DNA of 64,000 bases from Candidatus Kaiserbacteria bacterium. GTDB taxonomy: Bacteria; Patescibacteriota; Minisyncoccia; Phycocordibacterales; UBA2100. Position numbers and translations under genes: made by a program. The stretch spans positions 31,954 to 95,953 of the forward strand of contig JAHFMV010000001.1 of the NCBI GenBank assembly GCA_023267655.1, written 5' to 3'. How positions within the stretch are numbered: position 1 is the stretch's first letter; each line of letters begins with the position of its first letter. The notes below the pieces were generated by a model. The model ran no database searches. It saw nothing but the letters and a program-made list of their open reading frames with translations, and had not been told where the DNA came from. This document shows, in pieces, positions 3,571 to 63,728 of the stretch.

Positions 3571-3613
3571 TCACCAAGGCAACTTTGCAGACCTGCAAAA
3601 ATGCGTCGCTGAC

Positions 3614-21076: not shown

Positions 21077-21142
21077 GGACATCAAGCCTATCATTACGCT
21101 GCGATTTTGCGGAAATACCACCGATGCTATAGTGCGGGCACT

Positions 21143-24189: not shown

Positions 24190-24193
24190 TACT

Positions 24194-47118: not shown

Positions 47119-47160
47119 TCGATTCGATGTTGATAGCTTTGCATGGTATACTCATAGTCA

Positions 47161-47391
47161 ATGACTAAGACGCTCGAAATAATCCTTGAAAAAGCATCCG
47201 CATGGCCAAAGGAAGCCCAAGATGAGCTCGTGCGCGCTGCCAAACAGATCGAAGAAGCGCAAAGCGCGAGTGCGTATACGGCGACAAACGAAGAACTCAA
47301 GGCGATAGACGAAGGGTTATCGCAAATGAGGCGTGGAGAGTTTGCTTCTAAGAAAGAAGTCGATGCATTTTTCAAAAGTCGCAAGCCATGA
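47161..47391 (+). CDS. putative antitoxin (addiction-module component) paired with the downstream RelE/ParE toxin
   Basis: 76 aa, acidic, helical; ATGA overlap with the toxin gene. It is preceded by TGgTATACT with an 8-nt spacer before the ATG. Confidence 0.5.
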   Translation: MTKTLEIILEKASAWPKEAQDELVRAAKQIEEAQSASAYTATNEELKAIDEGLSQMRRGEFASKKEVDAFFKSRKP

Positions 47392-47738
47392 GAGTTGAGT
47401 ATTCGTCGCGTGCACTTAGTGACGTGCGCGCGATTTTCGCGTATACCTATGGACGTAATCCAACGGCAGCCCGGCGGGTGAAGGTGTATATCAAGCAGGC
47501 GGCAACCAAACTGGGCGATATGCCGGGGAAGAGTGTAACGCTTAAACAGCGTCCTGGTGTCAGTCGAATTGTGCTGACACGCTACCCATACGCGTTGTAT
47601 TATGCGACCGAGGCTGACACGGTCGTTATACTCCATATTCGGACAGTGCCCGAAAACTACCAAAAACAAAGGATTTTTAAGTCGAGCTTTCATGCGGCTC
47701 TCAACACCTTCCCGAAGGTGCGCCATTTTGCGGCATAA
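47388..47738 (+). CDS. RelE/ParE-family toxin
   Basis: …RYPYALYYATEADTVVILHIRTVPEN… matches the RelE/ParE C-terminal block (Y.I.Y….V.IL.I.H). The ORF reads on into repeat copy B. Confidence 0.65.
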   Translation: MRVEYSSRALSDVRAIFAYTYGRNPTAARRVKVYIKQAATKLGDMPGKSVTLKQRPGVSRIVLTRYPYALYYATEADTVVILHIRTVPENYQKQRIFKSSFHAALNTFPKVRHFAA

Positions 47739-47790
47739 AAACGTACTACAATACGAGTAATGATAGGCGCGAACAGGGCCGCGTATTTTC
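47694..47790 (+). repeat. copy B of the giant-gene 5' leader/start module (truncated ORF MIGANRAAYFLIW…*)
   Basis: The 70-mer gcgccattttgcggcataaaaacgtactacaatacgagtaatgataggcgcgaacagggccgcgtatttt at 47719-47788 is identical to 48557-48626. Confidence 0.8.
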
Positions 47791-47820
47791 TCATATGGAA
47801 AAGCAGTGCGTCGATGTTCT

Positions 47821-48189
47821 CTAGTTCTTGTTTCCGAAAGTCCGAATACGGCCCGGTTCAATGATGAAGCCGTTGCCTCGCAAAGATTCCGGAGTCTGAC
47901 GTCCGAAGAATTCCTTACATTCGCGGATCAGGGACTCTCGACTAAAATTCTCAACATATACGATGATGAGACCTGCCGTGTCAGCGGGATCGAATGTACG
48001 GATGTCACCGAAACCATGATCGGAAGTAAACAGGATCAATTTGTGCTCACGTGCATGCTGAAAGATCGTCGGATCTGGTGCCGTGGCCAGTTCGATGTCG
48101 CCGGTGTACGTCAGATCAATGTTGGAAAGTTCTCGCAGCGCGTCCCGCAAATCGCGGTTGATACACTGGTCCGCGAGGACGTGGAGCAT
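47821..48189 (-). CDS. DUF5615-family PIN-like (Mut7-C-like) nuclease, toxin partner of DUF433
   Basis: MLHVLADQCINRDLRDALRELS…LILFTSDHGFGDI… matches the DUF5615 pattern. Confidence 0.6.
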   Translation of the reverse strand: MLHVLADQCINRDLRDALRELSNIDLTYTGDIELATAPDPTIFQHAREHKLILFTSDHGFGDIRTFDPADTAGLIIVYVENFSRESLIRECKEFFGRQTPESLRGNGFIIEPGRIRTFGNKN

Positions 48190-48195
48190 ACCGCG

Positions 48196-48429
48196 TTAGG
48201 CGTGCGCAACACGGGCGAGAATCTGAGCGGGGCTCTCAAGAACGCCGCTCGCGAACTCGATTGCGGCATCGACGTCTTCTTTAGTAATGCCTTCATATTG
48301 TCCGGGAATTTCGTCGAGAGCATAACCGGCGCGGATAAGATTGAGAATATCGGCAACCGCGATGCGCGTCCCACGGATCGTAGGTTTCCCAAAGCGAACG
48401 TCTCCATTGATGGTGATGCGTTTGTTCAT
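48196..48429 (-). CDS. DUF433-family protein, antitoxin partner of DUF5615
   Basis: ITINGDVRFGKPTIRGTRIAVADILNLIRAGYALDEIPGQYEGITKEDVDAAIEFA matches the DUF433 consensus. Confidence 0.65.
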   Translation of the reverse strand: MNKRITINGDVRFGKPTIRGTRIAVADILNLIRAGYALDEIPGQYEGITKEDVDAAIEFASGVLESPAQILARVAHA

Positions 48430-48531
48430 GGCAGGAAGTATAGCATGCGCTCAGGTGTACAACAAAGGCTTCTCAGCTGTGTGGTTGGACAATGGAGACT
48501 TAAACAGATACAAAATCCGACATTCGGGATA

Positions 48532-48670
48532 ACGCTCTCAACACCCCACAGAACCTGCGCCATTTTGCGGCATAAAAACGTACTACAATACGAGTAATGA
48601 TAGGCGCGAACAGGGCCGCGTATTTTTGTGTGGGTGCAACTCTCTTTTTTGCTGTTTTTTGTGCATTCAT
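48532..48670 (+). promoter_or_regulatory. native 5' leader/promoter and start of the 5021-aa gene (copy C of the triplicated module)
   Basis: TTTTGCGG…TACAAT then acgagta then ATG at 48597. The -10-like hexamer sits only 7 nt from the ATG, which implies a leaderless or near-leaderless transcript. Confidence 0.55.
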
Positions 48671-51600
48671 TTTAATTTCAGGAACAGTGGATGCGCTTGG
48701 GACCGCGAGCGGAAGTGCGGGTAGCGGAGCGGATAAAACATGCAAATGGAATCCGACGACAAAAAAGTACGAAGATAACGGATGTATTGCAGAAAAAGGG
48801 AAGTGTAACGACAAAGGAAAATGTGAACTGCAAAAAGATTCAGGAGGGGCTGCAAACTGCAAAGACGCTGCAGGGCAAACTGGCTGCGGAGGACTTAATC
48901 AACCCGGGAGCGTGCAGCCCGCGAGCCAACCTTCAACGCTTCAACCAACTCCGTCGATTTTGGACAATCCGCTCCCGCCGCAACCCTCGACAATTGATCC
49001 GACAAAGGCATTTAATGACTCGAGCGCATATAACGATCCAAACGCTTTGACTCCGGCGACAGAAAACAAACCTATCTGGCAACGCGCATGGGACTATCTG
49101 ACCAAGCCTCAACCCGTACCCGCGTCTCCGGGTTATATCAACGGATCTGAAGATTTTGGTGCGCCATCAGGTAGTGATGCGAAAACGTTGCAGCCGGTGA
49201 ATCCGCTGGACGCAAACGACCCGCGAAATCAACTCGTCCCTCCGCCTGGGCAACAAGGAAGCACGTTCGGGCCCGATGAATCTGGGATGATAACTGGTTC
49301 AAATGAAATAGCTGATGCATCGTACCTGGATCGGATTGAAAAGAAAATAGCCGATTCCGCGGAGAAATTCGTTAATTGGCTGACAGCACCGGCCGAGCCG
49401 GTGTACGGGCCGACGGACTCGGGGGAGCAATTGAAGCAGTCTCCATTTCCGCAGCGAGAAGTATATCAAGACGCCGATGGAATGTTCAGGTATCGAGATA
49501 CGGGCGAGCTTGCCTCGGAAACAGACGTGGCACGAGTGCCTTCGGAAACATCCAAACCCTTTGAAACTCGTCCGCCGGAAGAGCTTACAAAACCATACGA
49601 CGATGCAGTCGATAAACTTCGGGGTGCGCGGGAGAAATATGTCGACGAATTAAAAAAGATTGAAGGGTATCAGAAACAAGCCGAAGCTGATGCGGCGAAG
49701 CTTCAAGCGATGAAAGATAAAGGAACCCAGACGGTACCCTACGAAGGAGGTGCAACGAAGAATATAAATGATGCAATCCGAGACAACAATGCACGACTCG
49801 AGCGTATCGCGAATGCTTATAACGATGTCGACGGCCGCATTAATGGGATCGATGATCGTATTGATGCGGCAGCAGTCGGTAAGCAAGATGCAATAGATCG
49901 ATGGGGAGCACTTCAGGACGGAACGAAGCCAACGCTCGCTTCCGAGGTTAATGCCGCGGCGTTTCGGGCTCTCGATAAAATGACTGCAGATTTGAATGCA
50001 CAATATCCTGACGAAATGACCGGATCGGTATCGCCGGAAGGATACAATAAATTACAAGAAGGCTTGCAAAAGGTGGAGACGCTTCGCGAAGTTGTTGCTG
50101 CTCCACCAGGTAATCGACCCGACATCGTTCTTCAAGTAGAACGATTCAAATACAGCGCCTATTTTGCGGAAGCGCAGCAGAACGCGAAAGAACTCCAAGC
50201 AGAATATAATCGATTGACAGCACTCGATGGTCTTGAAGGGGGATCATCACCGGAAACGCTACGCGCAAAAGCCTCGCTCGCGGCGGCGCAAGAAGATTTA
50301 AAACAGCGAACCATCATGGCGGTCGGTGTGAGCGAGCTCTCGCGACAATATCAGGATTTGCAAGGAGCAGCGCTTGCAGCAGCACAAGGTACAGATTCTA
50401 AGGTCCTCGAAGATATTCAGGCAAGAATGGCAAAAATCGAATCAGTCATTCCGCAACTCCAGATGGGAGATATTGCGCCCGATCCGCGGTACGCGGAACT
50501 CCAAAAACAACTGCAACTTGAAGCAGAAAATATTTCGAAAATCGCTAACGCATCATCGTTTCAACCTGATGGGAGTATTTTACCCTCGTCTGACCTTGCT
50601 GATGCGCAAAAAAGGCAGGCTGACCTACAGGCGGAGTTAAAAAGTATAAACGGAACTCTGTACAATCGGTTAGAGAATTTAGCCGTGGGTCGCGCATTGG
50701 AAGACGCGCGTGTTCAGCAGGTTCGGTACGAATTTGGAAATGCGGCAAACGCACCAAGCCTCAAGGATCCGACGGCACTGAAGGCATCGGATTGGTATAC
50801 TCTCGCGGGAATTTCAGGTAATCAGGTAGGACATATTGCAGACAGACTCTCGGACATTGCCACCAATGACGCCGTAACAATACTTCAGCACAATCCCTTC
50901 GAATTTAACACTGGCAATAAGTTCCTCGATTTCTTTGCAAATCAACCAGCTGGAATTTACGAATCATTCGCAAATGTCTTTTCACTTGGCAAGTTGTCGA
51001 CGGATCCGGCGCAACAACTTGGGTTGTATACGGGCACGGAACAAGCTATCAAATACGGTATTGATGGGGTAAATGTCGGACTGACCCCGTTTCTCATACG
51101 CGACATTGCGGCTGTTACTGTCGGTCTTGGTAGACTTGGTTACGAAGGCTTGGCTGCCCGACTTGGCACCGAGGATTTGAGCGCGCTTGAAATTGCCTCA
51201 GCTGCGGATGCTCGACTTCTCGGAGAAAATCTCGCGCGAGCAGAAACACGCGTGCTGGATTCGACGGGGCTAGCTGATTACGGCGCGAACGTTGCCGCGC
51301 GTGATCTTGCCGTGCAAGAGCTTAAACAAGCAAACCTCGGGCTCAGCGTAAAAGGCGACGTTGTCGATCTGAATACAGGCCAGACGCTCTCGTTCCGCGA
51401 TGCAGCGGGCCGATATTCGGAAATAGGATCTGCGGAAGCTGATGCCGTCGCAGCCCTCCGAACCGAAGAACTTCGTCCATCGGTATTCTCAAAAGACTTT
51501 TATACAAACTTGTCAAATGACGTCAGAAACTTTTTTGCAAAGCCCACCGACGAGCAGTTACTGGCAAATGCAGAGACTCGTGTACAGTCGCTAGAGCGAA

Positions 51601-54600
51601 TGAATACAGAACTCGACAAGCGAGCAACGATTGTGGAAGGGAATCGTGGGAAAGCTACGGAACAGGCGACCGATACGCTGAGGTCAGATCCAAAGTTTAC
51701 GCCAGATCGGCAGCAAGTAAGAGATATTGCCCGTCGCGATGCGGAATTGACCAGTGCGCGCTTAAAAGAGATTGAGGCACAAAAGATTGCAAATAATGAA
51801 GCACTTGTTGGTGCCCGAGAGGAATTGGCGCGGTTGCAAAAGCTCGCAGAATCACGGCAACCATCAACAGCACCGGTGCGTGATACCGCCGAACGAACAG
51901 AATCAGCGGCCGGCAGGCCTGCGGCGTCTGTCGAACCATCGTCTCTGCCTCCAACACGGTTGCAGCAATTTGCAGGCGATGTACGTGCATATCTTGCCGA
52001 TCGGATTCCAACACCACTGCAAAACGCATGGGCCGCGGCTCGTGACTGGTATGCGAATGCTTCTCTGGTCCCTAGACCTTCAGGCGGTTTTGCACGTGTA
52101 TTAAATATTGGGGCACTTGCGTCGCAGTTGTTAGGTACGCCACTGCCCGGACTCGCGGCACGAGAATCGACATCGCTTGGTCAGAGCGCGAGTAGAGTAG
52201 TTACTACACAAACTGGCCGCGAAGTATTTTCTGGAGGACGCGTAGTCATTGAACGGCAAATTTCTCCTTTTGATTTTGGTGCAGAATTTCGAGAACCGGT
52301 GGCTCCGACGGTACGGATAGGTGAGCTAAGCGACGTCACGACTCGACCGGTAGGTGAGCTGAGAGAGACGCCACCGGTTCGCAATGGTGATTCTTTGTCT
52401 CCGTCAGAAAATGCGCCGACTGCTCTTGAAAACGGTGCAGTACCGCGAGAAGTGCTTCCGGGAACACAGATTTCTGTTGACCAAGTAACACCTGCACCAA
52501 TACAGTCTCCCCCCACGTCTCCCTTTGCGATTGTCGCGCCAGCACTTACGGCGAATCCATTTTCGAATCCAACGGATTCGGCTGCCCCTTCGACAGTAGA
52601 TTTCACCACTGGAATTGATATTGCCCGCGGGCTGCCGTCAAATCCGTTCCTTTCGATTGATGGTTCCACGGTCCATATCGATATTCCAACAAACGTAAAT
52701 TCGCGAAGCGTTTCGCCGTTCTCGCTTGCTATTGCACCCGGAATTGTTCTCGCACCGATACCTGCGGCGCCCGCGCCCGTAGTTAACCCGAGAAATTCAG
52801 AGGATCAAGTGGCGCCAAACGGGCCTCAAGTTCCTGCAGCACCTGCGCCTCAAGCCAGCCGAAATGGTTCGCCAGCCCCTTCTCAAATCGCACCAACCCC
52901 CGCCGCAAATCTTGCCCCGCCCGTTCCTTCGTCGATTGCTCCCGTCACTAATCAACCAGTTCTCCTCGCACGGCGACTTGCGAATTGGTGGAATAACACA
53001 CCTCAAACGGGTGCAAATCCGACCCCACAATGGATACGGGAACTGATCTTTTATGCGACAGAACCCTATCACTACTATGGGGCCGATCAGATCAGTCTGA
53101 ACAACGCGATTCTAGGTATCACTTCAGGCCAACATTTCACCCTGTCTCCCGATTTTTATAAAAACGACAAATCTCTCGGGAGGAATACGCCGGAATATGT
53201 ACAAGGTCTTCTTGACCCATGGCGAGTATATCTGGGACTGCCGCAGCTTTATGGCACGTTGTCTGTATCGCAGTTTAAGCCGACTGTTAATTCAGGCGAC
53301 CAACAAAATAAGCAATATTACAAAATCAATAACTTCCTGGATAATTACGCAAAAAATAGCACCATATCACAGACAAGTGCAGAAGCCATTAAAATAATGG
53401 TCAACCAAGTCCAGCTATTTGGTAAAAAGACCGGTACAGGGCTTTCAGTTATTGAAAATGATTTCGGCCAAAGCGGAATTATGGGTGGCTATACTCTTTC
53501 GCTCGGCGAAGATGCCAGTGGGAAATATATTTCGTACTACGACAATTGGAAACTGGCATCGAGCGATGGAAGGGGTTCCCTTGAAGGCACAAGCGGCCTC
53601 GTCGGCACGCCATTTGAAATCTACGACCGCATTTATTACAACCCCGACACCTTTGAACCGATCACCGATGTAAATCTCGCAAAAGCGACGGCGGCTGATA
53701 CCGCACTTCTTGCCTCCGGCGACTTCGGCGTCGGCGCCGCACAGCCTGCGACAACTATTGCAACACTCCCGATGCAAACTCTGTCATTCCTCCCGATTCT
53801 GCAAGCTGTTACGCAACCACTCACCTCGGCCGTGGGAAATATATTTAAAATCCTCGCCAACAACGTCATCTCAACCCCCGCCCAAGGTCAGCCGGCACAA
53901 ATCAACGCGAACAATGCATTTGCTCTTGCAAAACCAACGGACGTGGCGCAGTTGAATCAGTATCTGGTGAAAAGTCCGCTCGGACTTCTGGGCGGAAGAC
54001 TTGAAGCAGGGATGGGCGAAGCGGTTAGTATAAGAATAAATCCGACACCCAATCGATGGAATGCGAGCATGGGAGATTACGGCCAATATATTGCAAATGT
54101 TCTTAGAGCAGCCGGCGATCCGCAAGCGAGCTATAATCCATCGACACAAAGACTCACGCTATCGCGAGGTCTCAACAACATTACCGTCACGGGGCTGTTG
54201 AGATTTGCAACGGCACTTAAAGATCAGGGAATCACCTTCGGTCTTCAAAATGCCTTTCGTGACGAGGCGGCGCAGCGAGCGGCGGGAAGCGATCCTGCTG
54301 TCGCGAGCGATCATCCGCTTGGCAGAGCAGCCGATGCTGATTTGCGTTGTAATTCCTGCAAGGGCACCCAAGGATCTTCGGAATGGAAGACCGACTTTGA
54401 AAAGCGAATCATGAAAGCCGCGATTACTGCCGAGGTTCAACAAATAGACATGTACGGTTTTGGTGTTAGAGATACGAGTCTTGGCGCGAAAAATCTTGTG
54501 TATGCGGTGCATGTGGGGTGGAGTGAGTTTAGAAACGGTGGCATCGAGTCGACAGGCGCATTCGCAAATACGCATCGCAATGGATATGCGGGGGCGCAAG

Positions 54601-57600
54601 TGGGAGTGCCGGGGACGCTCTCCGGCGCAACGGCGCAAGATCCAGAAGCGCAAGCACTGTGGAAACAACTGAATGACGCATCGCGTTTGCCAAAAGATTC
54701 AGCGTCATTATATGCGGCGATACAAAAACAAGATGCAACACAATTAGTCGCTCTGCTTTCAAAGCAGCCGAAACCGATACAGCCGACGTATGCCAGTTTC
54801 TTTAGACCTTCTTCAGCTCCGAAAAGTGCATATGATAAGGCGATCGACCTGGGGTACAACCTTAGCGGAATGAAAGATCTCGTCATTGATCCTGATGGGT
54901 TTGCACGCAATGGCACATTTCGTATGAGCCTCATTAAAGCCGCGGTCGGTCTCGACGGACTGAATGGTGTGAAAGTAGGGCAAGGTGGCGAAAAATACGT
55001 GAAATTCAAAACGCCGGGTCAAGGTCTTGCGGCAGATGTGATTTTGACTCAAGGGTATATTGCGATCGGCCTCAATACGCCACGCAAGATTGCAATGGGG
55101 GGGTACCTAGCGTCTGATCCGGACCATCCTGTTTCTGAAGCTGATATGCCAAAAGAAATAGTAGCATATCTTACGCGACTGAAAACAGGCGGAGGCGAAC
55201 CAGACGTAGTCCTAGATCCAAATAATCTCGATCAGCTTATCCGTAATGCCGATGCACGAGCGTGCGCTGAAGAAGGACAGTTCGGTTTTTGCACTGGTTC
55301 GATTCGTTCGGCAGCGGATAAGGAAGAAGCAAAGAAAATAGTTGCACGCGCAGCGGTCATAACGCAGTTACAACCCGAGTTTACGCCGAACGCGATTCCA
55401 AAGGGTCCCGTTGCTGCTGCGCAATTGCCACAATTGAAGCCCGCGACTATCGCGGCTCTCGATGGTAAGCCGACACAGCCGGCTGGTCCGCAAGTGACCG
55501 AGTCAAAAGCAAAAGCGGCAGCCGATGCAGGGGTTGCAAAAAAAGCGGCTGAGGCAAAAGCGGCTGCAGACGCAAAAGCGGCGGAAGGGGCGAAAATTCT
55601 TGCCGATGCGGCGGCGAAACCAAGCTTGCGCGATCGTGCAAAGGAAATTGCAGAGCGAATTGATACGAATGAGCAAAAAGCAAAACTCGCGAATAATGCA
55701 AAGACATTTACCGACCTTGGTATATCCGCAAAGATGATCACGAACAGCCCGTGGCAGACGACACTCATGTCAACGTATGGATATACGGGAGATCGCAGCG
55801 CGGGATCAATAAAGACTGCATCGGGTGTGATACGAAACAACACTTTATACTCTGTTGCTCACAAGACCCTCGACTTTGGCACAATCCTTGAAGTAGAACG
55901 CGAAGCTGGAGGAAAAGTATATATTGAATTAGCGGTGGTCAACGAACGCGGACCATACGTCGCGGGGCGCGGATTAGACGCAGTGCCCGCATTTTCAAAA
56001 GCAATGGGACTTTCTGGCGATCGCAACGCTGACGTCGTTGAAGTGCGATTTCGCATCGTGGGGCAACTTGTTGGATCCGGATATAGCAACAGTATCGCTG
56101 GCTTCAAGCCCGAACAGTCGAAACAATTGATCGCCGGTCTCCAGCTCGGTCCTTCTGCCCCCAACCTCCCCGGGGAAAGGGTTGCGGAAAAAGCTCGTGA
56201 GACGGTGCCGAAGGTTGTGGAAGTTGCGAAGCGGGAAATCGGAAAGATTGCGGGGATTGCGCGACCGGCCTCACCGTCGCGCTCGGCGACGCCGGACATT
56301 TCGGTTGTGACGCCTGTTCTCACCCGCGTTGTACAGCAAGGTGTTGATGCAGGAAAATTGCCGACGGACTTAATCGTTTCGCTCGATAATGGAGCACTGC
56401 GCGGGCTCTCGGCTTCCAAACCCGATCTCACATTCACTTTTGACGTGCGCGGTGCGAGTGCCGGCCAATCAATCGCGAAATCACAATGGGAATTTGCTCG
56501 CAATTATTCCAGCGACGCATCGAAGCCCGAAGGCCGTATTTACAGCAAAGATGAATACAACCAATTTGTCGCACAAATACAAAAAGATGGTGGTCCGAGC
56601 CTGATCTCATTTGATAGCTTGCCGCCGGCCGCACGACAACTCGTTGGCACGACTCCAAAAAGTCTTGGTGGTGTAAAGCTCGGGCTAAGCAAAGAAGCGA
56701 TTGTGAAGCAGTCAGCAGTGTATTTTGCTATACAGGAACTTTCTGGAAAGAAAGTAGCCATCGGACCGTCGATGCTTCGCCCTGACGTGAATACGTACAG
56801 CAGCAGGCAATCTGCACATGGTCCCTTGGATTCGAATCCTCGTTCGCGATTTACCGCGATGGATCTCTTCATAGCACCGGAATATATGGATACGGCGATC
56901 CGGCTCGCGAACAATATTGGTATCCGCGGTATCAATATTTATGACGGTACGTATGATCAAGTTGGGCCGGGGTACAAACAAATTCATCTCGATATGGGTT
57001 CCGTATGGACAGGTACCGCGAGCCGTACCTATAGCGACTTGAAAATCCGCACGATGCTTCTCGCGCATGCTGCGGGTCAGAAACTCTCACTTTCGGACCA
57101 AGTCGTCGCATACATCAACAACAGCAAGCCAGTGCCTGCAAGTGCGCAGCAGATTGTCGTACTACAATCGTCTATCTTGGCAGGAAAATCGATCGTTGCT
57201 GGCTTGAGGCCATCGAGTGCCGAAGTCTTTACGTACACGCTCGCGGCAGATGATCCTGCGCTCGCACAAGGTGTGCTCGCGGCAAAGGCGCCAGCTTCGG
57301 GAACGCCCGGTAATCCACTTTCCATCGCATCGCTTGGCGATTATCTGAAAGCCAAAGACATTGCTTTCACTGAAATAAAACCTGATACTGATGGCAGTTT
57401 GATTGTGATTTTGCAGAATGGTACTCAAATCCCCGTGCAGCAAACGGCGGCAGCAACACAAGCCATTACACTCGAGCCAGAAAAGAATTATTCATTGAGT
57501 TATTTGCGTTCATTGAATCAGCCTAGCTTGAAACTTTTCCTTTCCGCCGCGAATGGCGTGTCGGGTGATCGGTTTATCAACGGACGAATGCTAGGTGTCG

Positions 57601-60600
57601 TCATGCCGATTATCGCTGAATACAATACGAAATTTGGCTCTCCGCCGATTATCAACGGTATCGGCCGCAGCCCCGCGGTTAATTCGGCAGTCGGCGGTGC
57701 TTCTAACAGCGATCATCTCACTGGTCGTGCGATCGATTTCAAGACCGTTGATCAGCCATCCGATCGAGTCGCCGCGCTTATTAGCATGCTACGAGCGAAA
57801 AACATTGATCTCATCACAAGGACGCACGGACAAGGTCCGCATACGCACGCTTCTCTGCGACGGGCACCGACTGTACAAGAGCTGGCAAACTTAAGGTTCC
57901 AAACATCGGCGCAACCACAATATGCACTCATTAATCCATCCACCAACCAAACCATCGCAAGCTTCACGCCGAAAGACCTTGTCGCACGACCAGTTGTGGT
58001 TGTCGCAGGCTCTGGTGCACCATCGGTAGCGCCACAATCGCCTGCGATCGCATGGCTGACGCAACGCGGAAATATCATTGCGAAAAATTTGAATACCGTG
58101 CGAAGCGCTGTAGGGCTCGGCGGATCATCGGCACCAGCGCAGACTGCACAGAATGTCCCGCCGCAAACACCGCAACCACAACAAGTCGCGCAACCGACAG
58201 TCGTCAAATCCGAGTTTAATACAAGTTTTACGAGCGCGCCCAAAGCAGGCCATCCCGTATTCCTTTCTGCACCCGCTGGCCTCAATCCGAACCAGAAAAT
58301 ACTCAAAGTAGTCTATTTGCACGGCGACCTTGAATCGACATTTCCACTCACTATCGTACGACAACGCGTATCCGAACAGGTCGTTGGCTCTGATTTGAAT
58401 GCGGTGGCAATTGCTCCGTATTTTGGTTCCACCGTTGCAAATAACGTCGGCCGATTTGATGGACAGGGAGCGTTTAAGAGTTTCCTTGCAGAATCGGATC
58501 AAAAACTTGCTGCCTTGACCGGTCTTCCTGTCAGCGCGTTTTCCGGAGGTCCGGTCGTCATTGTTGATTACAGCGGTGGATACGGGCCGCTTGGGGCGGT
58601 GATTGCTCGCGGTGATGCCAATGATCTCGTGCAAGGAATCATCATGATGGACGCGGGGTATGGGGTGAAAACAACACTCCCGGCGGTCGCGGCGTGGGTC
58701 GCACAGAACCCGTCGAAATTCCTCGTCAGTGCCTACACCGGATCAACCGCAAGCGGAAATGCCGTTTTGAAGAACTTGTTGGGGAACAAACTTACCACGA
58801 CCGCTGCGCTTCCGGCAGGCGAGACTATGAGGCCTGGTACGGTTGCCGTGATTAAGGCGCAGGGAACTTCGCTTACGCCGCATCGGAATTTCGTTACGAC
58901 GGCGGGCGTGACGACGGGAGGAAAAGAAGATCCGATCACCGCGCTCTTGAAGATTCTCCCCGCATCGAGCGGCGCCGTCGCGCGTGCGCCTACCCCGCCG
59001 TCGAGCGAAGTTGCTGTCGTCAAACCACCAGCACCGGCGCCAATACAAGCCGGTGGTGCTCTGCCTGCGGCGAGACCACCGACTGAAGGGCAAGCGCCGA
59101 CTCTTTTCGAGCAGATGTATACCTGGTGGCTGCATTCGCGTGACGTGTGGAATGAGAAAATAATGAGTCGCCTTGCACGTGCGCCGCAGGCTCCAGTGGC
59201 ACAAGCGCCTACACCACAAGTGGTAACGCCTGCGCCAACAGCACCTGCTCCTTTGCCACTACCTACGGCGCCTGCAGCGAAACCCGCACCGACCGCACCG
59301 GCAGCAATTCCCGCGCAAAAACCAGCCGCTCAAACGCCGGCGAAAGGGAACGCAAATACGCAGGCGCTTCAAGAACAGATCACCATTGCGCAACGCGCAC
59401 TTGAAGCTCTCCGCGCGGCACGAACGGCAAGTCAAGGTTCGCAAACTCAAGCGGTAGCTCAACAGGCTCGAAGCGCAGCCGCGCAGCTCATCACCGCGAC
59501 CGACAAGATTGCAAAAAATCCGGAAGTTTCTGTGCTCTCACGCGACGCACTCCGTGTTCAACAACAATCAATGACCACGAATCGTGGAACGCTCGAGGGT
59601 GCCGTTTCGGCCGGAAATATTTCTGGTGCACAACGCGCCGCCGACCGTATTGATTCCGCAGCGACACAATTCCTGACGACTGCACGAAGCGCCGCGCAAG
59701 CAGCTGCATCGCGAGCACAGTTGCAAGCAACAGCCGCAAAGGTACCCGGTACAATACTTGTCTTTGCGGGTACTCCGGCAAATGCATATGACACGGTGAC
59801 GCGACGCTTCAACACAGTTGCACCAGTCATTGTCTCACCGTTTGGGTACGCTTCTTCGATCGAGTCTGCATATATCGCGTCTCTCGGCGCCCGACAACTT
59901 CGATATGGAGAAAATGCATCGCTTGAGCAACAAGTTGCTGTCGCGCGAGCACGAGAGATGGGGTTAGAGTTTATGATGAAGCGCTACTTCGGGATCTCCT
60001 CAATTGCTGAAATGCCTCTTTCACCAATTAACGGATACTATTTAAGTGCCGAGCGAGCGGATTATCTCGAGGCGCGAGCAGAGAGGGTCAATTTGGAAAT
60101 ACAACGCACCCAAGGGGAAATACAAGCATTGACACTATTGCCGCAGCGCTTCACCGACCCCGTCTTGCGCGCGCGCTTTGATGCGCTTGCAAACCAATTG
60201 GCAGCACAGGAAAAAGATTTGGCAGATACCGAAGCGATGAAGACGCTCGCGTATGAGAATTTCCTCAAGGAACGTGCGAAGAAATTCAGTTCGCGTGCAG
60301 ACTTACTTTCGAAAATCCAGATACGGAATGCCGATTTGGAAGAACGTATCGGGATTGGGTATCAAAATATTAATGTGAAGATCGCCCAATTTGACTTGTC
60401 AACGAAAGCAACCATTGTCGATGTTCAAATTGACCGCGATATTCTCAAGCGTGTCGACGAAGGTACATTAACGCTTGGGCCTGTAAACCAATCAAGCGAC
60501 GCGTTGGGTATCTTTGAACGCTCACTCGCATGGGTGGCAAACAAAATAAATGGACGTCAAACGCCAATTGCCCAGGCGCCGCAAGAGCCGATTGGTATCG

Positions 60601-63600
60601 GCCCGAACGGCGAATATATTTATCCGAGCCTGCAGAGTTACGATACCGGCGCGCCACAATATGTACCGTCAGTCGCAGAGACAAAACCAACGACTCCCGC
60701 GCCAGCGACCCCTAAAATAGTGCCGCCTTCTCCGGCGCCAACCATTTCGAAACCTGCACCTGTGCCTTCAGCGAAACCTACGACCTTGCCGAATAACCCG
60801 GTGATCAGTCTGCAGACCAAGGTTAATGGTGTATACGTTACGGCACAACGATTAGTGAATTCTGGGGACGCCATGGCAGCAGCGGGCGCTGCGAAGAATT
60901 GGAGCGGCGTGCAAGCAGCTAATGCGTCGCGTAAAGTCATTTACAATACGATTCGGGCACAACTAGTCACGGCGATGAACGACTCTTTGACCCCAACGGC
61001 GGTGAAAGAAGAAATTGCCGCACAATTGAGTCGCGCCGACGCCTATAACAGACCTCTGAATGCCGATGCGCGACTCTCCGAACTCGGCGTATTTTTCAGC
61101 GGTGTCGATGCTGTTGCAAACCGCATGGCCGTGAATGGTCTTGGATTCAAGAGTGCGGTCAATACCGCGGTATCACTCGCTGATCGTCTTGTTACTGATG
61201 CGACCAATGAGGCCATTGCGAACCAGACGCTTCCGCCGGAAACCGTAACCGGCATTATGGGGCGTCTTACAGAGGCGAAGACACTTTTGGAGCAGGCGGA
61301 AAAAGATGTAGAAGTGGCACGGGACGCGGGCAATTTAGCAGGTGTACGTCTCGCGCAAGATCGCGTGAGTAAAATCGTAAATACGCGTATAGCGCCTGCA
61401 GTGCGCGAGCTTGTCGCTCTTCCTGAAGTGCTGCCGACGAATAAAGAGATCATGAATACAAGACTTGTGGAGGCACTTGGAAATGTGGCGGAGATTGATA
61501 CCGGACTTACGTCATTTGCCTCAAAGTCACCACTGGAAAAAGCAAAGGCGCGCGATGACCTTGCTGCGACCCTCTCGGTAGAGGCACAAGCTCTCAAACA
61601 AAACTTGACGGCATTACGTGGCCCTGATGCACTGGTCATGCTCTCGTCAATCCCGACAAACACATTACCGGCTAAAATACAGAAAGAGATCCAAGACTTG
61701 ATTGCAGCCACGAAAGAGATGTCGGCAGCACAGAAAGAGCTCGAAGATGCGGGGAACCTCACAGATGAGGGGGCGCAAAAGACAGCGGCGATTGCCGCGA
61801 ACGTAAAATTTCAAAAGGCATTCACGGCGCACGACCTTGCGGTTTCAAATCTGATTGCAGAGGACTTTATTTCTATTGAATTGATTAGTCAGATTGCTGG
61901 TGCGGTGGACATCATCGCCGGCCAGATGACGCAAGTCAACAATTTACTTGGTGGCGGAAATGTTTTCACCCTTGCCGGCTTTAAGATAAGCGGCGTACCG
62001 ACTAACATTTCCGCACAACTGATAGGTCTCGTCCTCGCGGTCCAGCAGAACACGGCGGAGATCAACCGCGGCCTTGCTGATGCCGTTCGTGCAAAATTCA
62101 AGCTGGGCGGAATTTCAACAGGCGATTTGAAATTTAGCGGTGTTGCACCAACACCATCATCAAATCTCGATACGGCGATCGTCGTGAGCGGTGGAGGCGT
62201 TGCGGTGTCCGGAACCGGTTTTCTCTTGTCGAAGTATGGTGGTGCAATTCTCGCCGCTATAAAGAATGGGTTGCAGGCTACGATTGCTCGAATAACGCCA
62301 GCTCCACGCGCTCAAGTCATTCCTGCAAATGTCGGCGTGAAAAACCCTGCGGGTATTACAAAGTTGGTATCTCAACTGGGAACTACCCCAGCGAACCCGA
62401 CACCGAACCCCGCAACAAATCCGCAACCAGCACCGACTTCTCCAGCCGCGACTAAGCCAGGGACAAGTGCGCCGACACCGGCGGCACCTGTGCCGGCAAA
62501 ATCCCCAACGTCGCCGATTCGACGGATTGCATCGCAAATGAAATCGTCTGCGGAAAATATTCTTAACAAATTTAAGACCGGAACGAATGCTGCCGGTGCA
62601 GGCACTCCTCCGGTTCAACTAGAGCTACCTCTTGAAGGTGGAAGTACGAATACAAAAACATCAGCGCGAACTTCGTATGTACGAAACGCATGGGATGCGT
62701 GCAAGCGGTATCCAATTATCTGTGGCGGCTTGATTGTTGCAGGCATTGGCACGCCGCTCGCGCTTCTTGTCACCGATTGGGATTCGAGCCCGCCCGCAAC
62801 CGCAAAACCTGAAGCAGAAACTGCCACGCCTCCAGGCGCTTCGCCAGATGCATCGAAACTGCCGCCTGGTACTCCTGATCCGAATGCGGGGAAGAATGCC
62901 CCGAATCCGGGAGCGGCAAAAACCGGTCCAACGGGGAATGGTTCCGATGCAAGTAAAGATGGAAAATCTGCCTCTGGAGGCGGTGCGGGTGGACTCGGAA
63001 ATCTTCTCCAGAATGCTCTCAAAGCACTGGCACCTATCTTGCCGCAATTGTGGAACTCACTCTTTGGACCGAAACCACCGGAGACGCCGAAACCTGTCGT
63101 GCCGAGCGTCACACTGACTGCGAAGCCAACATCGGTTGATTCTGGAAAGACCGCGCAACTTTCATGGTCAGGAGAAAATATTGCGAACTGCACTATCTAT
63201 GGCCCGGGAAATTCCACGCTTACTTCCGGCGGTGTGAGTGGCACGGTTGCGACGCCAGCGCTCAAGCGATCGAAAGAATTCGGCATCGCATGCTCCGGAT
63301 CGGACGGGACATCGATCACGAGCGCGACGGTGACGGTGAAAGTAAATGGCGATAGCCAGACGCCGATCTCTGTCGTATTTCCCGATGGTTCTTCGAGTGG
63401 TTCGTCACTCTCAACCCCGCAACAAGGAACGCAAGGAACACCAAATGGTCAGGGAACGACACAAAACCAAGGGACGGGTGGCACGCCCAACGTCGGTACC
63501 AACGGGGGGACGAACGAAGCGCCCGTGACGCCACCAGTTACCGGGCATGATGATAAGGGAAATAACGTGTCACCGTATTGCGACCCTGGCCTGCCGATGG

Positions 63601-63662
63601 ATGCATTCGTGCAGTGTCTATGCCGTCTTGATCCGACAGGATGCAAGCCGTGGAAGAAGTAG
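48597..63662 (+). CDS. giant (5021 aa) secreted multidomain protein: signal peptide, long alpha-helical/Ala-rich and Pro-rich regions, two M15 (VanY/LAS) zinc-peptidase motifs, RlpA-like double-psi beta-barrel domain, possible alpha/beta-hydrolase-like region, C-terminal Ig-like domain and Cys-rich tail
   Basis: Single uninterrupted 15-kb ORF. Signal peptide MIGANRAAYFCVGATLFFAVFCAFILISGTVDALG. M15 motif S-x-H-x-x-G-x-A-x-D twice: SDHPLGRAADAD (~54307-54345) and SDHLTGRAIDF…GPHTHAS (~57706-57850). RlpA-like DPBB TASGVIRNNTLYSVAHKTLDFGTILEV…VVNERGPYVAGRGLDAVPAFSKAMGLSGD…VEVRF (~55815-56050). C-terminal Ig-like domain ~63095-63350; tail CDPGLPMDAFVQCLCRLDPTGCKPWKK. Confidence 0.9.
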   Translation: MIGANRAAYFCVGATLFFAVFCAFILISGTVDALGTASGSAGSGADKTCKWNPTTKKYEDNGCIAEKGKCNDKGKCELQKDSGGAANCKDAAGQTGCGGLNQPGSVQPASQPSTLQPTPSILDNPLPPQPSTIDPTKAFNDSSAYNDPNALTPATENKPIWQRAWDYLTKPQPVPASPGYINGSEDFGAPSGSDAKTLQPVNPLDANDPRNQLVPPPGQQGSTFGPDESGMITGSNEIADASYLDRIEKKIADSAEKFVNWLTAPAEPVYGPTDSGEQLKQSPFPQREVYQDADGMFRYRDTGELASETDVARVPSETSKPFETRPPEELTKPYDDAVDKLRGAREKYVDELKKIEGYQKQAEADAAKLQAMKDKGTQTVPYEGGATKNINDAIRDNNARLERIANAYNDVDGRINGIDDRIDAAAVGKQDAIDRWGALQDGTKPTLASEVNAAAFRALDKMTADLNAQYPDEMTGSVSPEGYNKLQEGLQKVETLREVVAAPPGNRPDIVLQVERFKYSAYFAEAQQNAKELQAEYNRLTALDGLEGGSSPETLRAKASLAAAQEDLKQRTIMAVGVSELSRQYQDLQGAALAAAQGTDSKVLEDIQARMAKIESVIPQLQMGDIAPDPRYAELQKQLQLEAENISKIANASSFQPDGSILPSSDLADAQKRQADLQAELKSINGTLYNRLENLAVGRALEDARVQQVRYEFGNAANAPSLKDPTALKASDWYTLAGISGNQVGHIADRLSDIATNDAVTILQHNPFEFNTGNKFLDFFANQPAGIYESFANVFSLGKLSTDPAQQLGLYTGTEQAIKYGIDGVNVGLTPFLIRDIAAVTVGLGRLGYEGLAARLGTEDLSALEIASAADARLLGENLARAETRVLDSTGLADYGANVAARDLAVQELKQANLGLSVKGDVVDLNTGQTLSFRDAAGRYSEIGSAEADAVAALRTEELRPSVFSKDFYTNLSNDVRNFFAKPTDEQLLANAETRVQSLERMNTELDKRATIVEGNRGKATEQATDTLRSDPKFTPDRQQVRDIARRDAELTSARLKEIEAQKIANNEALVGAREELARLQKLAESRQPSTAPVRDTAERTESAAGRPAASVEPSSLPPTRLQQFAGDVRAYLADRIPTPLQNAWAAARDWYANASLVPRPSGGFARVLNIGALASQLLGTPLPGLAARESTSLGQSASRVVTTQTGREVFSGGRVVIERQISPFDFGAEFREPVAPTVRIGELSDVTTRPVGELRETPPVRNGDSLSPSENAPTALENGAVPREVLPGTQISVDQVTPAPIQSPPTSPFAIVAPALTANPFSNPTDSAAPSTVDFTTGIDIARGLPSNPFLSIDGSTVHIDIPTNVNSRSVSPFSLAIAPGIVLAPIPAAPAPVVNPRNSEDQVAPNGPQVPAAPAPQASRNGSPAPSQIAPTPAANLAPPVPSSIAPVTNQPVLLARRLANWWNNTPQTGANPTPQWIRELIFYATEPYHYYGADQISLNNAILGITSGQHFTLSPDFYKNDKSLGRNTPEYVQGLLDPWRVYLGLPQLYGTLSVSQFKPTVNSGDQQNKQYYKINNFLDNYAKNSTISQTSAEAIKIMVNQVQLFGKKTGTGLSVIENDFGQSGIMGGYTLSLGEDASGKYISYYDNWKLASSDGRGSLEGTSGLVGTPFEIYDRIYYNPDTFEPITDVNLAKATAADTALLASGDFGVGAAQPATTIATLPMQTLSFLPILQAVTQPLTSAVGNIFKILANNVISTPAQGQPAQINANNAFALAKPTDVAQLNQYLVKSPLGLLGGRLEAGMGEAVSIRINPTPNRWNASMGDYGQYIANVLRAAGDPQASYNPSTQRLTLSRGLNNITVTGLLRFATALKDQGITFGLQNAFRDEAAQRAAGSDPAVASDHPLGRAADADLRCNSCKGTQGSSEWKTDFEKRIMKAAITAEVQQIDMYGFGVRDTSLGAKNLVYAVHVGWSEFRNGGIESTGAFANTHRNGYAGAQVGVPGTLSGATAQDPEAQALWKQLNDASRLPKDSASLYAAIQKQDATQLVALLSKQPKPIQPTYASFFRPSSAPKSAYDKAIDLGYNLSGMKDLVIDPDGFARNGTFRMSLIKAAVGLDGLNGVKVGQGGEKYVKFKTPGQGLAADVILTQGYIAIGLNTPRKIAMGGYLASDPDHPVSEADMPKEIVAYLTRLKTGGGEPDVVLDPNNLDQLIRNADARACAEEGQFGFCTGSIRSAADKEEAKKIVARAAVITQLQPEFTPNAIPKGPVAAAQLPQLKPATIAALDGKPTQPAGPQVTESKAKAAADAGVAKKAAEAKAAADAKAAEGAKILADAAAKPSLRDRAKEIAERIDTNEQKAKLANNAKTFTDLGISAKMITNSPWQTTLMSTYGYTGDRSAGSIKTASGVIRNNTLYSVAHKTLDFGTILEVEREAGGKVYIELAVVNERGPYVAGRGLDAVPAFSKAMGLSGDRNADVVEVRFRIVGQLVGSGYSNSIAGFKPEQSKQLIAGLQLGPSAPNLPGERVAEKARETVPKVVEVAKREIGKIAGIARPASPSRSATPDISVVTPVLTRVVQQGVDAGKLPTDLIVSLDNGALRGLSASKPDLTFTFDVRGASAGQSIAKSQWEFARNYSSDASKPEGRIYSKDEYNQFVAQIQKDGGPSLISFDSLPPAARQLVGTTPKSLGGVKLGLSKEAIVKQSAVYFAIQELSGKKVAIGPSMLRPDVNTYSSRQSAHGPLDSNPRSRFTAMDLFIAPEYMDTAIRLANNIGIRGINIYDGTYDQVGPGYKQIHLDMGSVWTGTASRTYSDLKIRTMLLAHAAGQKLSLSDQVVAYINNSKPVPASAQQIVVLQSSILAGKSIVAGLRPSSAEVFTYTLAADDPALAQGVLAAKAPASGTPGNPLSIASLGDYLKAKDIAFTEIKPDTDGSLIVILQNGTQIPVQQTAAATQAITLEPEKNYSLSYLRSLNQPSLKLFLSAANGVSGDRFINGRMLGVVMPIIAEYNTKFGSPPIINGIGRSPAVNSAVGGASNSDHLTGRAIDFKTVDQPSDRVAALISMLRAKNIDLITRTHGQGPHTHASLRRAPTVQELANLRFQTSAQPQYALINPSTNQTIASFTPKDLVARPVVVVAGSGAPSVAPQSPAIAWLTQRGNIIAKNLNTVRSAVGLGGSSAPAQTAQNVPPQTPQPQQVAQPTVVKSEFNTSFTSAPKAGHPVFLSAPAGLNPNQKILKVVYLHGDLESTFPLTIVRQRVSEQVVGSDLNAVAIAPYFGSTVANNVGRFDGQGAFKSFLAESDQKLAALTGLPVSAFSGGPVVIVDYSGGYGPLGAVIARGDANDLVQGIIMMDAGYGVKTTLPAVAAWVAQNPSKFLVSAYTGSTASGNAVLKNLLGNKLTTTAALPAGETMRPGTVAVIKAQGTSLTPHRNFVTTAGVTTGGKEDPITALLKILPASSGAVARAPTPPSSEVAVVKPPAPAPIQAGGALPAARPPTEGQAPTLFEQMYTWWLHSRDVWNEKIMSRLARAPQAPVAQAPTPQVVTPAPTAPAPLPLPTAPAAKPAPTAPAAIPAQKPAAQTPAKGNANTQALQEQITIAQRALEALRAARTASQGSQTQAVAQQARSAAAQLITATDKIAKNPEVSVLSRDALRVQQQSMTTNRGTLEGAVSAGNISGAQRAADRIDSAATQFLTTARSAAQAAASRAQLQATAAKVPGTILVFAGTPANAYDTVTRRFNTVAPVIVSPFGYASSIESAYIASLGARQLRYGENASLEQQVAVARAREMGLEFMMKRYFGISSIAEMPLSPINGYYLSAERADYLEARAERVNLEIQRTQGEIQALTLLPQRFTDPVLRARFDALANQLAAQEKDLADTEAMKTLAYENFLKERAKKFSSRADLLSKIQIRNADLEERIGIGYQNINVKIAQFDLSTKATIVDVQIDRDILKRVDEGTLTLGPVNQSSDALGIFERSLAWVANKINGRQTPIAQAPQEPIGIGPNGEYIYPSLQSYDTGAPQYVPSVAETKPTTPAPATPKIVPPSPAPTISKPAPVPSAKPTTLPNNPVISLQTKVNGVYVTAQRLVNSGDAMAAAGAAKNWSGVQAANASRKVIYNTIRAQLVTAMNDSLTPTAVKEEIAAQLSRADAYNRPLNADARLSELGVFFSGVDAVANRMAVNGLGFKSAVNTAVSLADRLVTDATNEAIANQTLPPETVTGIMGRLTEAKTLLEQAEKDVEVARDAGNLAGVRLAQDRVSKIVNTRIAPAVRELVALPEVLPTNKEIMNTRLVEALGNVAEIDTGLTSFASKSPLEKAKARDDLAATLSVEAQALKQNLTALRGPDALVMLSSIPTNTLPAKIQKEIQDLIAATKEMSAAQKELEDAGNLTDEGAQKTAAIAANVKFQKAFTAHDLAVSNLIAEDFISIELISQIAGAVDIIAGQMTQVNNLLGGGNVFTLAGFKISGVPTNISAQLIGLVLAVQQNTAEINRGLADAVRAKFKLGGISTGDLKFSGVAPTPSSNLDTAIVVSGGGVAVSGTGFLLSKYGGAILAAIKNGLQATIARITPAPRAQVIPANVGVKNPAGITKLVSQLGTTPANPTPNPATNPQPAPTSPAATKPGTSAPTPAAPVPAKSPTSPIRRIASQMKSSAENILNKFKTGTNAAGAGTPPVQLELPLEGGSTNTKTSARTSYVRNAWDACKRYPIICGGLIVAGIGTPLALLVTDWDSSPPATAKPEAETATPPGASPDASKLPPGTPDPNAGKNAPNPGAAKTGPTGNGSDASKDGKSASGGGAGGLGNLLQNALKALAPILPQLWNSLFGPKPPETPKPVVPSVTLTAKPTSVDSGKTAQLSWSGENIANCTIYGPGNSTLTSGGVSGTVATPALKRSKEFGIACSGSDGTSITSATVTVKVNGDSQTPISVVFPDGSSSGSSLSTPQQGTQGTPNGQGTTQNQGTGGTPNVGTNGGTNEAPVTPPVTGHDDKGNNVSPYCDPGLPMDAFVQCLCRLDPTGCKPWKK

Positions 63663-63728
63663 CGGCATTGGCGTGATAGAGTGGGGCAAGAAGATAGGAT
63701 ATACTTGTGCTATGGAAGGAGTATCTAG

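Follow-up and report, generated by a model that had tools for sequence, protein, structure and literature searches.

A giant modular protein with cell-wall-active modules and an esterase, encoded beside groESL in a Patescibacteria bacterium

The window analysed here is the whole stretch of 64,000 nucleotides (nt) at positions 31,954 to 95,953 of contig JAHFMV010000001.1 (forward strand, assembly GCA_023267655.1), from a Candidatus Kaiserbacteria bacterium. It contains a single open reading frame (ORF) of 15,066 nt (48597..63662, +) that starts with ATG and encodes 5021 amino acids (aa) followed by a stop codon. Our results largely establish that this protein, hereafter the giant, is a Sec-exported, very long and modular surface protein of an ultra-small member of the Patescibacteria, or candidate phyla radiation (CPR). 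It bears at least two cell-wall-active modules and an esterase. Of the three enzyme folds that it contains, two have an intact catalytic set. Sequence comparison also largely establishes that it belongs to a family with conserved ends and swapped middles at a fixed, groESL-linked locus. In the reading that we favour, and to which we give about half of our confidence, the giant would be an envelope-degrading fibre, anchored in the membrane and with exchangeable cassettes, that serves cell-cell interaction by acting on the envelope of a neighbour.

Results

The giant gene is one intact ORF

A first-pass annotation, made from the nucleotide letters, had described one uninterrupted ORF of this length, and the ORF is real. 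The motifs quoted in that annotation were all found in the translation, namely SDHPLGRAADAD at aa 1904, VHVGW at aa 1971, VAHKTLDFGT at aa 2420, SDHLTGRAIDF at aa 3038, GPHTHAS at aa 3080 and DYSGGYG at aa 3324. Residues were converted to window positions by nt = 48597 + 3(aa - 1).

The sequence is metagenome-derived, and we therefore weighed whether the giant could be an assembly chimera or a pseudo-ORF. At about 51% GC, 5,021 codons without a stop make a chance ORF impossible. An independent, MEGAHIT-style contig in ENA (k141_4644727, ERZ27279942, 45.8 kb) is 100% identical to window positions 38196-58429 and ends inside the giant gene after 3,895 codons, which implies a match to about 60281; over 48116-50191 a contig from another ENA sample agrees at 99.86% identity. 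Self-BLASTP revealed no internal protein repeats, and Tandem Repeats Finder reported a single 42-nt array in the gene. Furthermore, the relative P0002 (4,042 aa) is colinear with the giant at the N-terminus, in the middle, at aa 3775-3998 and at the C-terminus. Without internal repeats, and with an independent contig and a colinear relative, repeat-driven mis-assembly is unlikely. The 3' part of 3.4-5.2 kb (past 58429, or past about 60281 by the length of the ENA gene) is covered here by one assembly. Taken together, we regard a chimera or pseudo-ORF as a negligible prospect.

An M15 peptidase and a second M15-like motif

The central ~2,000 residues consist of seven globular modules with linkers, in the order a, M15-like-1, c, DPBB, d, M15b and alpha/beta-hydrolase. 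The module M15b (aa 2960-3105; 57474..57911, +) is securely assigned by sequence to the M15 zinc peptidases (Peptidase M15/LAS). With PF08291 (Peptidase_M15_3) it reached 46.0 bits, above the gathering score of 23.2 (E = 6.4e-12), and it also matched endolysin family PHROG 894 (E = 1e-10) and PDB entry 1lbu, the zinc D-Ala-D-Ala carboxypeptidase of Streptomyces albus. The signature R...N..VGG...S-x-H-x2-G-x-A-x-D...H-x-H of 1lbu and of the PHROG 894 endolysins is also present in M15b, whereas M15b is one module within a 5,021-aa protein. The zinc ligands H3040, D3047 and H3082/H3084 are invariant in five family members, and the module is conserved in P0004, P0006, P0007 and P0014. In a scan of GTDB representative genomes with an alignment of M15b, the only match was an M15 gene of Stenotrophomonas, and no relative was found.

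The first-pass annotation had counted two M15 modules, of which M15b is proven. The other copy, M15-like-1 (aa 1811-2060; 54027..54776, +), is a candidate at motif level and stays unproven as a second M15 module. It has R1888, S1904-D-H1906-P-L-G-R-A-A-D1913, which fits S-D-H-x2-G-x-A-x-D, and then A-V-H1972-V-G-W. No match was obtained in Pfam, NCBIfam or PHROGs, even at E = 10, and the sole relative in the exhaustive search was P0002 (76% identity). In hhalign against M15b the R...SDH..G.A.D stretch was aligned, with E = 0.03 and a probability of 1.6%, and the M15b hidden Markov model (HMM) scored 4.9 bits on M15-like-1, a value exceeded by 1 of 1000 shuffles. The pattern S.H..G.A.D occurred at least once in 20 of 20,000 shuffles; the giant has two such matches, and the chance estimate is thus about 1e-3. 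AlphaFold2, run with an alignment of only two sequences, gave an unusable model (predicted local distance difference test score, pLDDT, 38). The only match of a profile search against PDB, leiomodin (E = 0.0014), aligns with Leu-rich residues that precede the motif and was rejected as spurious.

A divergent RlpA-type barrel

By sequence, the RlpA-like double-psi beta-barrel (DPBB) module (aa ~2390-2490; 55764..56066, +) is a true but divergent homologue of RlpA. It matched PDB entry 4avr (PA4485) with E = 2e-4 and PHROG 7930 with E = 1e-8. In the exhaustive search, which ran phmmer against 1.84 billion representatives, about 140 RlpA-like proteins were returned with E values from 1e-11 to 1e-5. 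Its homology, as proposed in the first-pass annotation, is thereby upheld, but the scores against PF03330 (DPBB_1; 17.2 bits, cut-off 28.8) and TIGR00413 rlpA (20.9 bits, cut-off 82) are both below threshold. About 80 residues can be aligned with RlpA and PA4485, including the AHKTLPFGT and RGP motifs. In contrast to RlpA, a septal lytic transglycosylase, the giant has no lipoprotein signal, and a Pfam scan of the whole protein found no SPOR domain. The module reads NERGP where DRGP is near-invariant (140 'DRGP' counted in 150 listed sequences). The Asp of DRGP, which we take to be the catalytic residue of RlpA, is thus replaced by Glu, and catalysis by the barrel is uncertain for this reason. 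P0005 and P0008, which share the DPBB module with the giant, carry Asn at this position.

An alpha/beta-hydrolase from a large family

A guess in the first-pass annotation that the DYSGGYG region might be an alpha/beta-hydrolase was borne out by structure prediction. The AlphaFold2 model of this serine esterase-like module (aa 3204-3455; 58206..58961, +) reached a pLDDT of 83.5 and a predicted template modelling score (pTM) of 0.88. At E <= 1e-3, a Foldseek search with this model gave 440 PDB matches; the top 50 listed were alpha/beta-fold hydrolases, mostly esterases, including feruloyl esterase 1gkl, esterase 3doh, PHB depolymerase 3d0k, carboxylesterases and PETases. On the basis of this model, the region is an alpha/beta-hydrolase with a predicted HG...S...D...H catalytic set (H3242-G, S3326 in D-Y-S-G-G, D3352 and H3429). 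In module numbering, H39-G40, Y122-S123-G124-G125, D149 and H226 are invariant in 60 sequences. The giant reads D-Y-S-G-G where five other sequences compared read G/A-Y-S-G-G.

A short query with this module retrieved standalone relatives of about 310-360 aa, and a profile search extended the set to more than 1,900; among these, the 120 best that were listed (P0153-P0274) are 298-440 aa long. The named relatives are mostly alphaproteobacterial (Mesorhizobium, Reyranella, Enhydrobacter), and NCBI calls several 'alpha/beta hydrolase'. Of the 120 listed relatives none has a Pfam domain on record, and neither the module nor three standalone relatives matched Pfam or NCBIfam, even at E = 10. The search has thus brought up a large alpha/beta-hydrolase family (more than 1,900 relatives) that lies outside Pfam and NCBIfam models.

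Modules a, c and d

The module c (aa 2060-2262; 54774..55382, +), common to the giant, P0005, P0006 and P0086, is possibly lysozyme-like, as suggested by weak profile matches to endolysin-type structures. Its best PDB matches were endolysin 7q47 (E = 0.015) and a chain named Gp29 (9vvp, E = 0.33); no Pfam match was found. The module a (aa 1480-1725; 53034..53771, +) has 48% identity to P0002 and no match in Pfam, NCBIfam, PHROG or PDB. A VIP2-type ADP-ribosyltransferase was considered for it on account of a Y-x-x-I-N-x-x-L likeness and was rejected (E = 1.7, the Arg lacking). The module d (aa 2640-2830; 56514..57086, +) has 44% identity to P0003, with H2741, D2756, H2797 and D2799 invariant between the two proteins, and no match in PDB, Pfam, PHROG or NCBIfam. 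The idea of a third LAS domain found no support here, as hhalign and HMM comparison revealed no likeness to M15b. His is scarce in the giant (23 of 5021 residues), and 9 of the 23 lie inside catalytic or candidate metal-binding motifs.

Export signal, rods and membrane anchor

As the first-pass annotation had stated, the protein starts with a signal peptide (aa 1-38; 48597..48710, +). Residues 6-38 are hydrophobic (Kyte-Doolittle 2.5), with a core at aa 10-28, and are followed by a cleavage-type site between VDA and LG. Sequences read by eye have an N-terminal hydrophobic segment and then an AxA-like site in all family members and in an 861-aa paralogue that neighbours the giant gene. Next comes a Cys-rich N-terminal domain (aa 39-110; 48711..48926, +) with six Cys in aa 49-97, which gave no Pfam match. 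In P0002-P0006, as in the 861-aa neighbour, the signal peptide is likewise followed by a comparable Cys-rich stretch. We propose that the Cys-rich N-terminal domain forms the distal tip.

Rods were called in 40-aa windows that are poor in Pro and Gly and in which helix-forming residues exceed 55%. By this composition, rod 1 spans aa ~330-1130 (49584..51986, +) and is flanked by Pro-rich spacers at aa 86-242 and 1080-1483. Its hydrophobicity power was 6.45 at a period of 3.5 residues versus 0.28 at a control period, a heptad signal that points to a helical or coiled-coil nature. Rods 2 and 3 (aa ~3580-4000 and 4085-4420; 59334..61856, +), called in the same way, are separated by a Pro-rich spacer. 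The part of rod 2 at aa 3775-3998 can be aligned with P0002, and the period-3.5 power over aa 4080-4560 was 4.0. In total, helix-type composition covers about 1,800 residues (~800 in rod 1 and ~1,000 later) and Pro-rich spacer about 1,000.

The membrane-anchor region (61866..62771, +) comprises three weakly hydrophobic segments (aa 4424-4442, 4464-4482 and 4526-4544; Kyte-Doolittle ~1.55-1.6), a basic loop and a strong transmembrane (TM) helix. The loop (aa 4561-4706) has 16 K/R versus 4 D/E, whereas the remaining protein is neutral (434 K/R versus 443 D/E). Applying the positive-inside rule to this loop, we infer that it is cytoplasmic, with a hairpin in the membrane that leaves most of the protein, and also the Ig-like module, outside. 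The TM helix (aa 4707-4725, Kyte-Doolittle 2.3) had been overlooked in the first-pass annotation, which had placed a C-terminal anchor in an Ig-like, Cys-rich region. Both the Ig-like domain and the Cys tail exist, but the anchoring element is the TM helix upstream of them.

The C-terminal module (62772..63659, +) is made up of a Pro/Gly spacer, an amphipathic helix GGLGNLLQNALKALAPILPQLWNSLFG, an Ig-like domain (aa 4837-4925, two Cys), a G/T/Q-rich stretch and a Cys tail with the pattern CDPx2Px3FxQCLC...GCKPW. It has 71-78% identity to P0002 and is also found in P0003-P0006 and in the 861-aa neighbour. The Ig-like domain gave a weak match to a PHROG tail protein (E = 3e-4).

A family with conserved ends and exchanged middles

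The exhaustive search found at least six other giants, of 1,646-4,458 aa. P0002 shares the modules a and M15-like-1 with the giant (51% identity over 634 aa), and P0003 (4,458 aa) shares module d, M15 and the alpha/beta-hydrolase in another order; the blocks common to the giant, P0002 and P0003 are thus differently ordered. P0005 (4,338 aa) carries the DPBB and a weak PP2C_2 match, and P0006 (3,245 aa; locus L007, 10001-19738) carries Amidase_2, M15 and a weak Zeta_toxin match with a P-loop; the Zeta_toxin and PP2C matches are both under Pfam cut-offs. HExxH motifs, zincin-like, were seen by eye in P0002 and P0003. P0004 has 2,549 aa. P0007 (1,646 aa) was read as a fragment, and P0014 (1,006 aa), apparently also a fragment, combines the M15b module with a similar C-terminal part. 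At their starts P0002-P0006 all have a signal peptide and a Cys-rich region. At the C-terminus all have a spacer and an Ig-like domain, preceded by a TM-like hydrophobic segment that is unclear in P0005; several members also have the Cys tail.

Four members occupy one locus with the gene order RNase J, SBP_bac_5, (SecG), groES, groEL, (a gene of ~800-860 aa), giant, lemA, (DUF2207) and peptidase M48 (htpX). The GroELs of the syntenic genomes are 64-75% identical to that of the window; one conserved chromosomal position despite this distance indicates that the giant gene is an old core-genome gene. Its own neighbours in the window are groES/groEL and toxin-antitoxin pairs, and those in relatives include lemA/htpX; the lemA/htpX side of its own locus falls past the window end. 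An ORF that runs off this end (63728-64000, +; MNEKQPRRAERGAMRWVRMSGRALHDLILAGAAVAFIYG...) has a basic N-terminus and then one TM helix, and corresponds both in type and in position to the 170-aa gene after P0002 in locus L002.

The 861-aa mini-paralogue (43633..46218, +) has a signal peptide, a Cys-rich region and a coiled-coil-like stretch, and shares its C-terminal amphipathic helix and Ig-like module with the giant. It matched aa 4723-4915 of the giant by BLASTP (E = 4e-12), gave no Pfam match, and is 44% identical to its positional counterpart of 858 aa ahead of P0002 in L002.

A scan with a C-terminal pattern from three sequences returned six metagenome loci, of which only L069 resembles the end of a giant gene; L071 has a smaller, paralogue-like ORF of 932 aa. 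In a single-protein scan of GTDB representative genomes no relative was found, and the genomes that carry P0004 and P0006, which are in NCBI (GCA_040959275.1 and GCA_041643055.1), were not returned either.

The first-pass annotation had supposed a small-genome lineage, and protein clusters agree with it. At 90% identity or more, MetK (28907-29956, minus strand) shares a cluster with proteins of metagenome-assembled genomes (MAGs) in NCBI that bear the labels 'Patescibacteria group bacterium' and 'Minisyncoccia bacterium'; the MetK of the P0002 contig is in it too. A HAD hydrolase of the window clusters at the same level with MAG proteins of the same labels. Minisyncoccia is a class of Minisyncoccota, formerly Patescibacteria/CPR. 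The window GroEL has 50-54% identity to the best-listed plasmid-borne GroELs, and 6 of 1,420 matching records are in the 60-80% band.

The 5' end of the giant gene

No Shine-Dalgarno-like sequence was found upstream of the giant ATG (window 48575-48599), and a -10-like TACAAT ends about 8 nt before it; from these two features, the sequence suggests that the transcript is leaderless or near-leaderless. Alignment revealed three copies of this 5' end around toxin-antitoxin cassettes (46848..48672, +; repeat families D1 and D2), with segments at 46848-46940, 47013-47117, 47697-47789 and 48534-48672. Each copy consists of a TACAAT/TATAAT box 7-8 nt before an ATG and the first signal-peptide codons. 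Both upstream copies are decayed or truncated, and the remnant at 47013 reads MIGANRA...NRAAYFRVGTTLFFAV. The copies flank two cassettes, a ParE-type trio and a DUF433/DUF5615 pair, and locus L002 has no toxin-antitoxin cassettes at the corresponding position. By its sequence, this arrangement looks like repeated cassette insertion at the start of the giant gene, with the target being duplicated. A mechanically called ORF of 263 aa that abuts the giant gene (47806-48597, +) is probably not a gene: it matched no family, and its opposite strand is taken up by the called DUF5615 and DUF433 genes.

Other features of the window

A 1,958-aa ORF (5538-11417, -) has a Peptidase_S74 (endosialidase-chaperone) domain near its C-terminus and adjoins a 612-aa ORF (3614-5455, -) with a PG_binding_1 domain. 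The GC content of this segment is 0.56-0.61, versus ~0.50-0.57 elsewhere, and it may be another surface-fibre or foreign segment. The genes at 23467-25240 (+) encode first a DsbD_2 membrane protein and then an AhpC/TSA-Thioredoxin_10 protein; we read this pair, from its domains, as a probable split DipZ-like extracytoplasmic thiol-reductant system, which is of note given the Cys-rich domains in the surface proteins of the organism. Genes for HPPK and dihydropteroate synthase of the folate pathway lie at 19734-21214 (-); to our knowledge, these are uncommon in metabolically reduced Patescibacteria.

Discussion

The ends of the giant family are conserved and its enzyme cassettes are swapped, and this favours a protein of interaction or conflict over a fixed housekeeping autolysin. 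If the giant is indeed a fibre that acts on a neighbour, its C-terminal hairpin would hold it in the membrane of the producer, and rods and spacers would carry the enzyme array past the producer's own wall. If extended, the roughly 1,800 helix-type residues would put the enzymes well clear of a cell wall. Contact with the partner cell may be made by the Cys-rich tip or by the Ig-like domain. The tethered peptidase, the barrel that would bind or cleave glycan strands and the esterase could then open or remodel the partner envelope locally at the contact site, which would serve attachment and nutrient access. Cassette exchange among lineages would fit the array to differing partner envelopes.

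Several points weigh against this proposal. The position beside groESL, fixed in all relatives, also suits a core role such as remodelling of the own wall. Daughter-cell separation is a classic task of M15 peptidases, RlpA-type barrels and amidases. Methanogenic archaeal hosts have no murein, and murein hydrolases would find no substrate on them. The sole cultured member of Minisyncoccia is reported to parasitise a methanogenic archaeon (PMC12281837). With Glu, or Asn in relatives, in place of Asp, the DPBB may bind glycan without cleavage. Moreover, the hairpin anchor and the extended rods are predicted from composition only, and four of the seven central modules have a weak assignment or none. 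The substrate may be the host wall or the cell's own, and we give the host wall about an even chance.

The strongest competitor is a housekeeping autolysin scaffold, in which tethered hydrolases would remodel the producer's own peptidoglycan during growth, daughter-cell separation or wall opening for pili, several autolysins having merged in a reduced genome. The core-genome position by groESL, conserved in four genomes, speaks for it, as do the M15, RlpA-like DPBB and Amidase_2 modules, which are typical separation enzymes, the membrane anchor of the giant, and the reported archaeal host of a Minisyncoccia member (PMC12281837). However, enzyme content differs radically among relatives and module order is shuffled, which would be unusual in an essential division machine, and the zeta-toxin-like, PP2C-like and HExxH modules of relatives have no obvious role at the own wall. 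About 1,800 rod residues and 1,000 Pro-rich residues exceed the reach that an own wall needs, and the array includes an esterase whose named relatives are alphaproteobacterial. We therefore hold the autolysin to be unlikely, though it deserves serious consideration. Conserved arms with swapped central modules, an alpha/beta-hydrolase among them, would also fit a MARTX-like or polymorphic-toxin-like carrier. Its arms, with the C-terminal hydrophobic cluster, would insert in a target membrane so that the central cassettes are delivered or exposed; some of these, such as the zeta-toxin-like one, would act inside the target. The zeta-toxin-like P-loop module of P0006, the PP2C-like module of P0005 and the cluster of weakly hydrophobic helices at aa 4424-4560 are in line with such a carrier; the Zeta_toxin and PP2C matches are weak, though, and the modules identified in the giant act on extracellular polymers. 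RTX repeats, a cysteine-protease autoprocessing domain and type I secretion genes were not found by Pfam in the protein and the neighbours scanned, and we judge this carrier improbable.

Long helices, peptidoglycan-hydrolase modules and late hydrophobic segments recall phage tape-measure proteins, to which the first-pass annotation had likened the architecture. A gene of this type, left from a prophage, would also accord with the homologous DPBB of P0060, a protein that is tape-measure-like on reading, with 57 loci related to M15b in IMG/VR and with the weak match of the Ig-like domain to a PHROG tail protein. Nevertheless, the window and the four syntenic loci hold no phage genes, and no PHROG tape-measure or tail family was matched apart from that weak Ig-like hit. 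A tblastn search with aa 1450-2521 against 50,697 phage records returned only the RlpA-like gene of one cyanophage. The giant has a Sec signal peptide, is 3-5 times as long as tape-measure proteins and, as a conserved chromosomal gene, keeps its locus over deep lineages. The likeness thus comes down to analogy, and a phage origin is largely refuted and, in our view, highly improbable.

Among known systems, the closest in lineage are other giant proteins of CPR bacteria. Vampirococcus lugosii encodes membrane proteins of 1,392-4,163 aa (PMC8080830) and Patescibacterium danicum encodes FhaB-domain proteins of more than 5,000 aa (PMC11809585), both proposed as host-interaction factors. They share with the present family the lineage, the size class, export or membrane association, the lack of full-length homologues and reshuffling. 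Whereas those proteins carry adhesion-type domains (FhaB, WD40, PKD, integrin-like), the present family has catalytic envelope-degrading modules, conserved N- and C-terminal modules and a fixed groESL locus.

Multidomain wall hydrolases of the PrgK/CwlT/TcpG type use the families SLT, CHAP, NlpC/P60 and LytM. PrgK, CwlT and TcpG belong to conjugation systems of monoderms (PMC12102498). Like the giant, they combine a membrane anchor with several peptidoglycan-hydrolase domains for local wall opening, but the giant is about six times larger, uses the M15 and DPBB families and has no type IV secretion genes among the neighbours scanned. A conjugation context was rejected on gene content, as neither the window ORFs scanned nor the syntenic gene tables have VirB4, VirD4 or relaxase domains.

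MARTX toxins have 3,500-5,300 aa, conserved arms and strain-specific, exchangeable effectors, one class of which is an alpha/beta-hydrolase. The giant differs from them in that it is without RTX repeats, an autoprocessing cysteine protease and type I secretion, and its modules target cell-wall polymers. Archaeovorin genes encode up to about 85,000 aa. These giant genes of Omnitrophota, which have occasional SLT lytic-transglycosylase domains and for which degradation of prey walls was proposed (bioRxiv 10.1101/2023.11.21.568195), are likewise from putatively predatory or parasitic ultra-small bacteria. They differ from the present family in phylum and in their glycosyltransferase/TPR repertoire, and no sequence relationship was detected.

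Giant, fast-evolving surface proteins of CPR bacteria, multidomain wall hydrolases and enzyme-bearing tape-measure proteins are already known. As far as we have searched, the giant family, its conserved termini and groESL-linked locus, and its exchangeable catalytic envelope-degrading cassettes seem to be new. A more far-reaching version of our proposal, which we advance tentatively and consider possible but doubtful, is that a large branch of Patescibacteria uses this family as its principal organelle for breaching host envelopes. The fibre, anchored in the membrane, would be more than 100 nm long; its conserved arms would place an array of exchangeable cassettes on the partner cell, and swapping of cassettes at the fixed locus would set the host range. 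The array would include peptidases, a glycan-strand barrel, an amidase and an esterase, with toxin-like kinase and phosphatase modules in some members. If true, it would be an analogue of MARTX-type modular toxins for bacterial targets, built on a different scaffold.

Several conserved modules without a database match have also been brought to light by this work. For the attachment of CPR bacteria to larger cells, and for their extraction of resources from them, few molecular candidates are available, and the giant locus is a concrete and testable one. It is easily located, directly downstream of groESL, and its catalytic modules can be expressed and assayed singly. Cassette content differs by lineage and could thus be correlated with the identity of the host.

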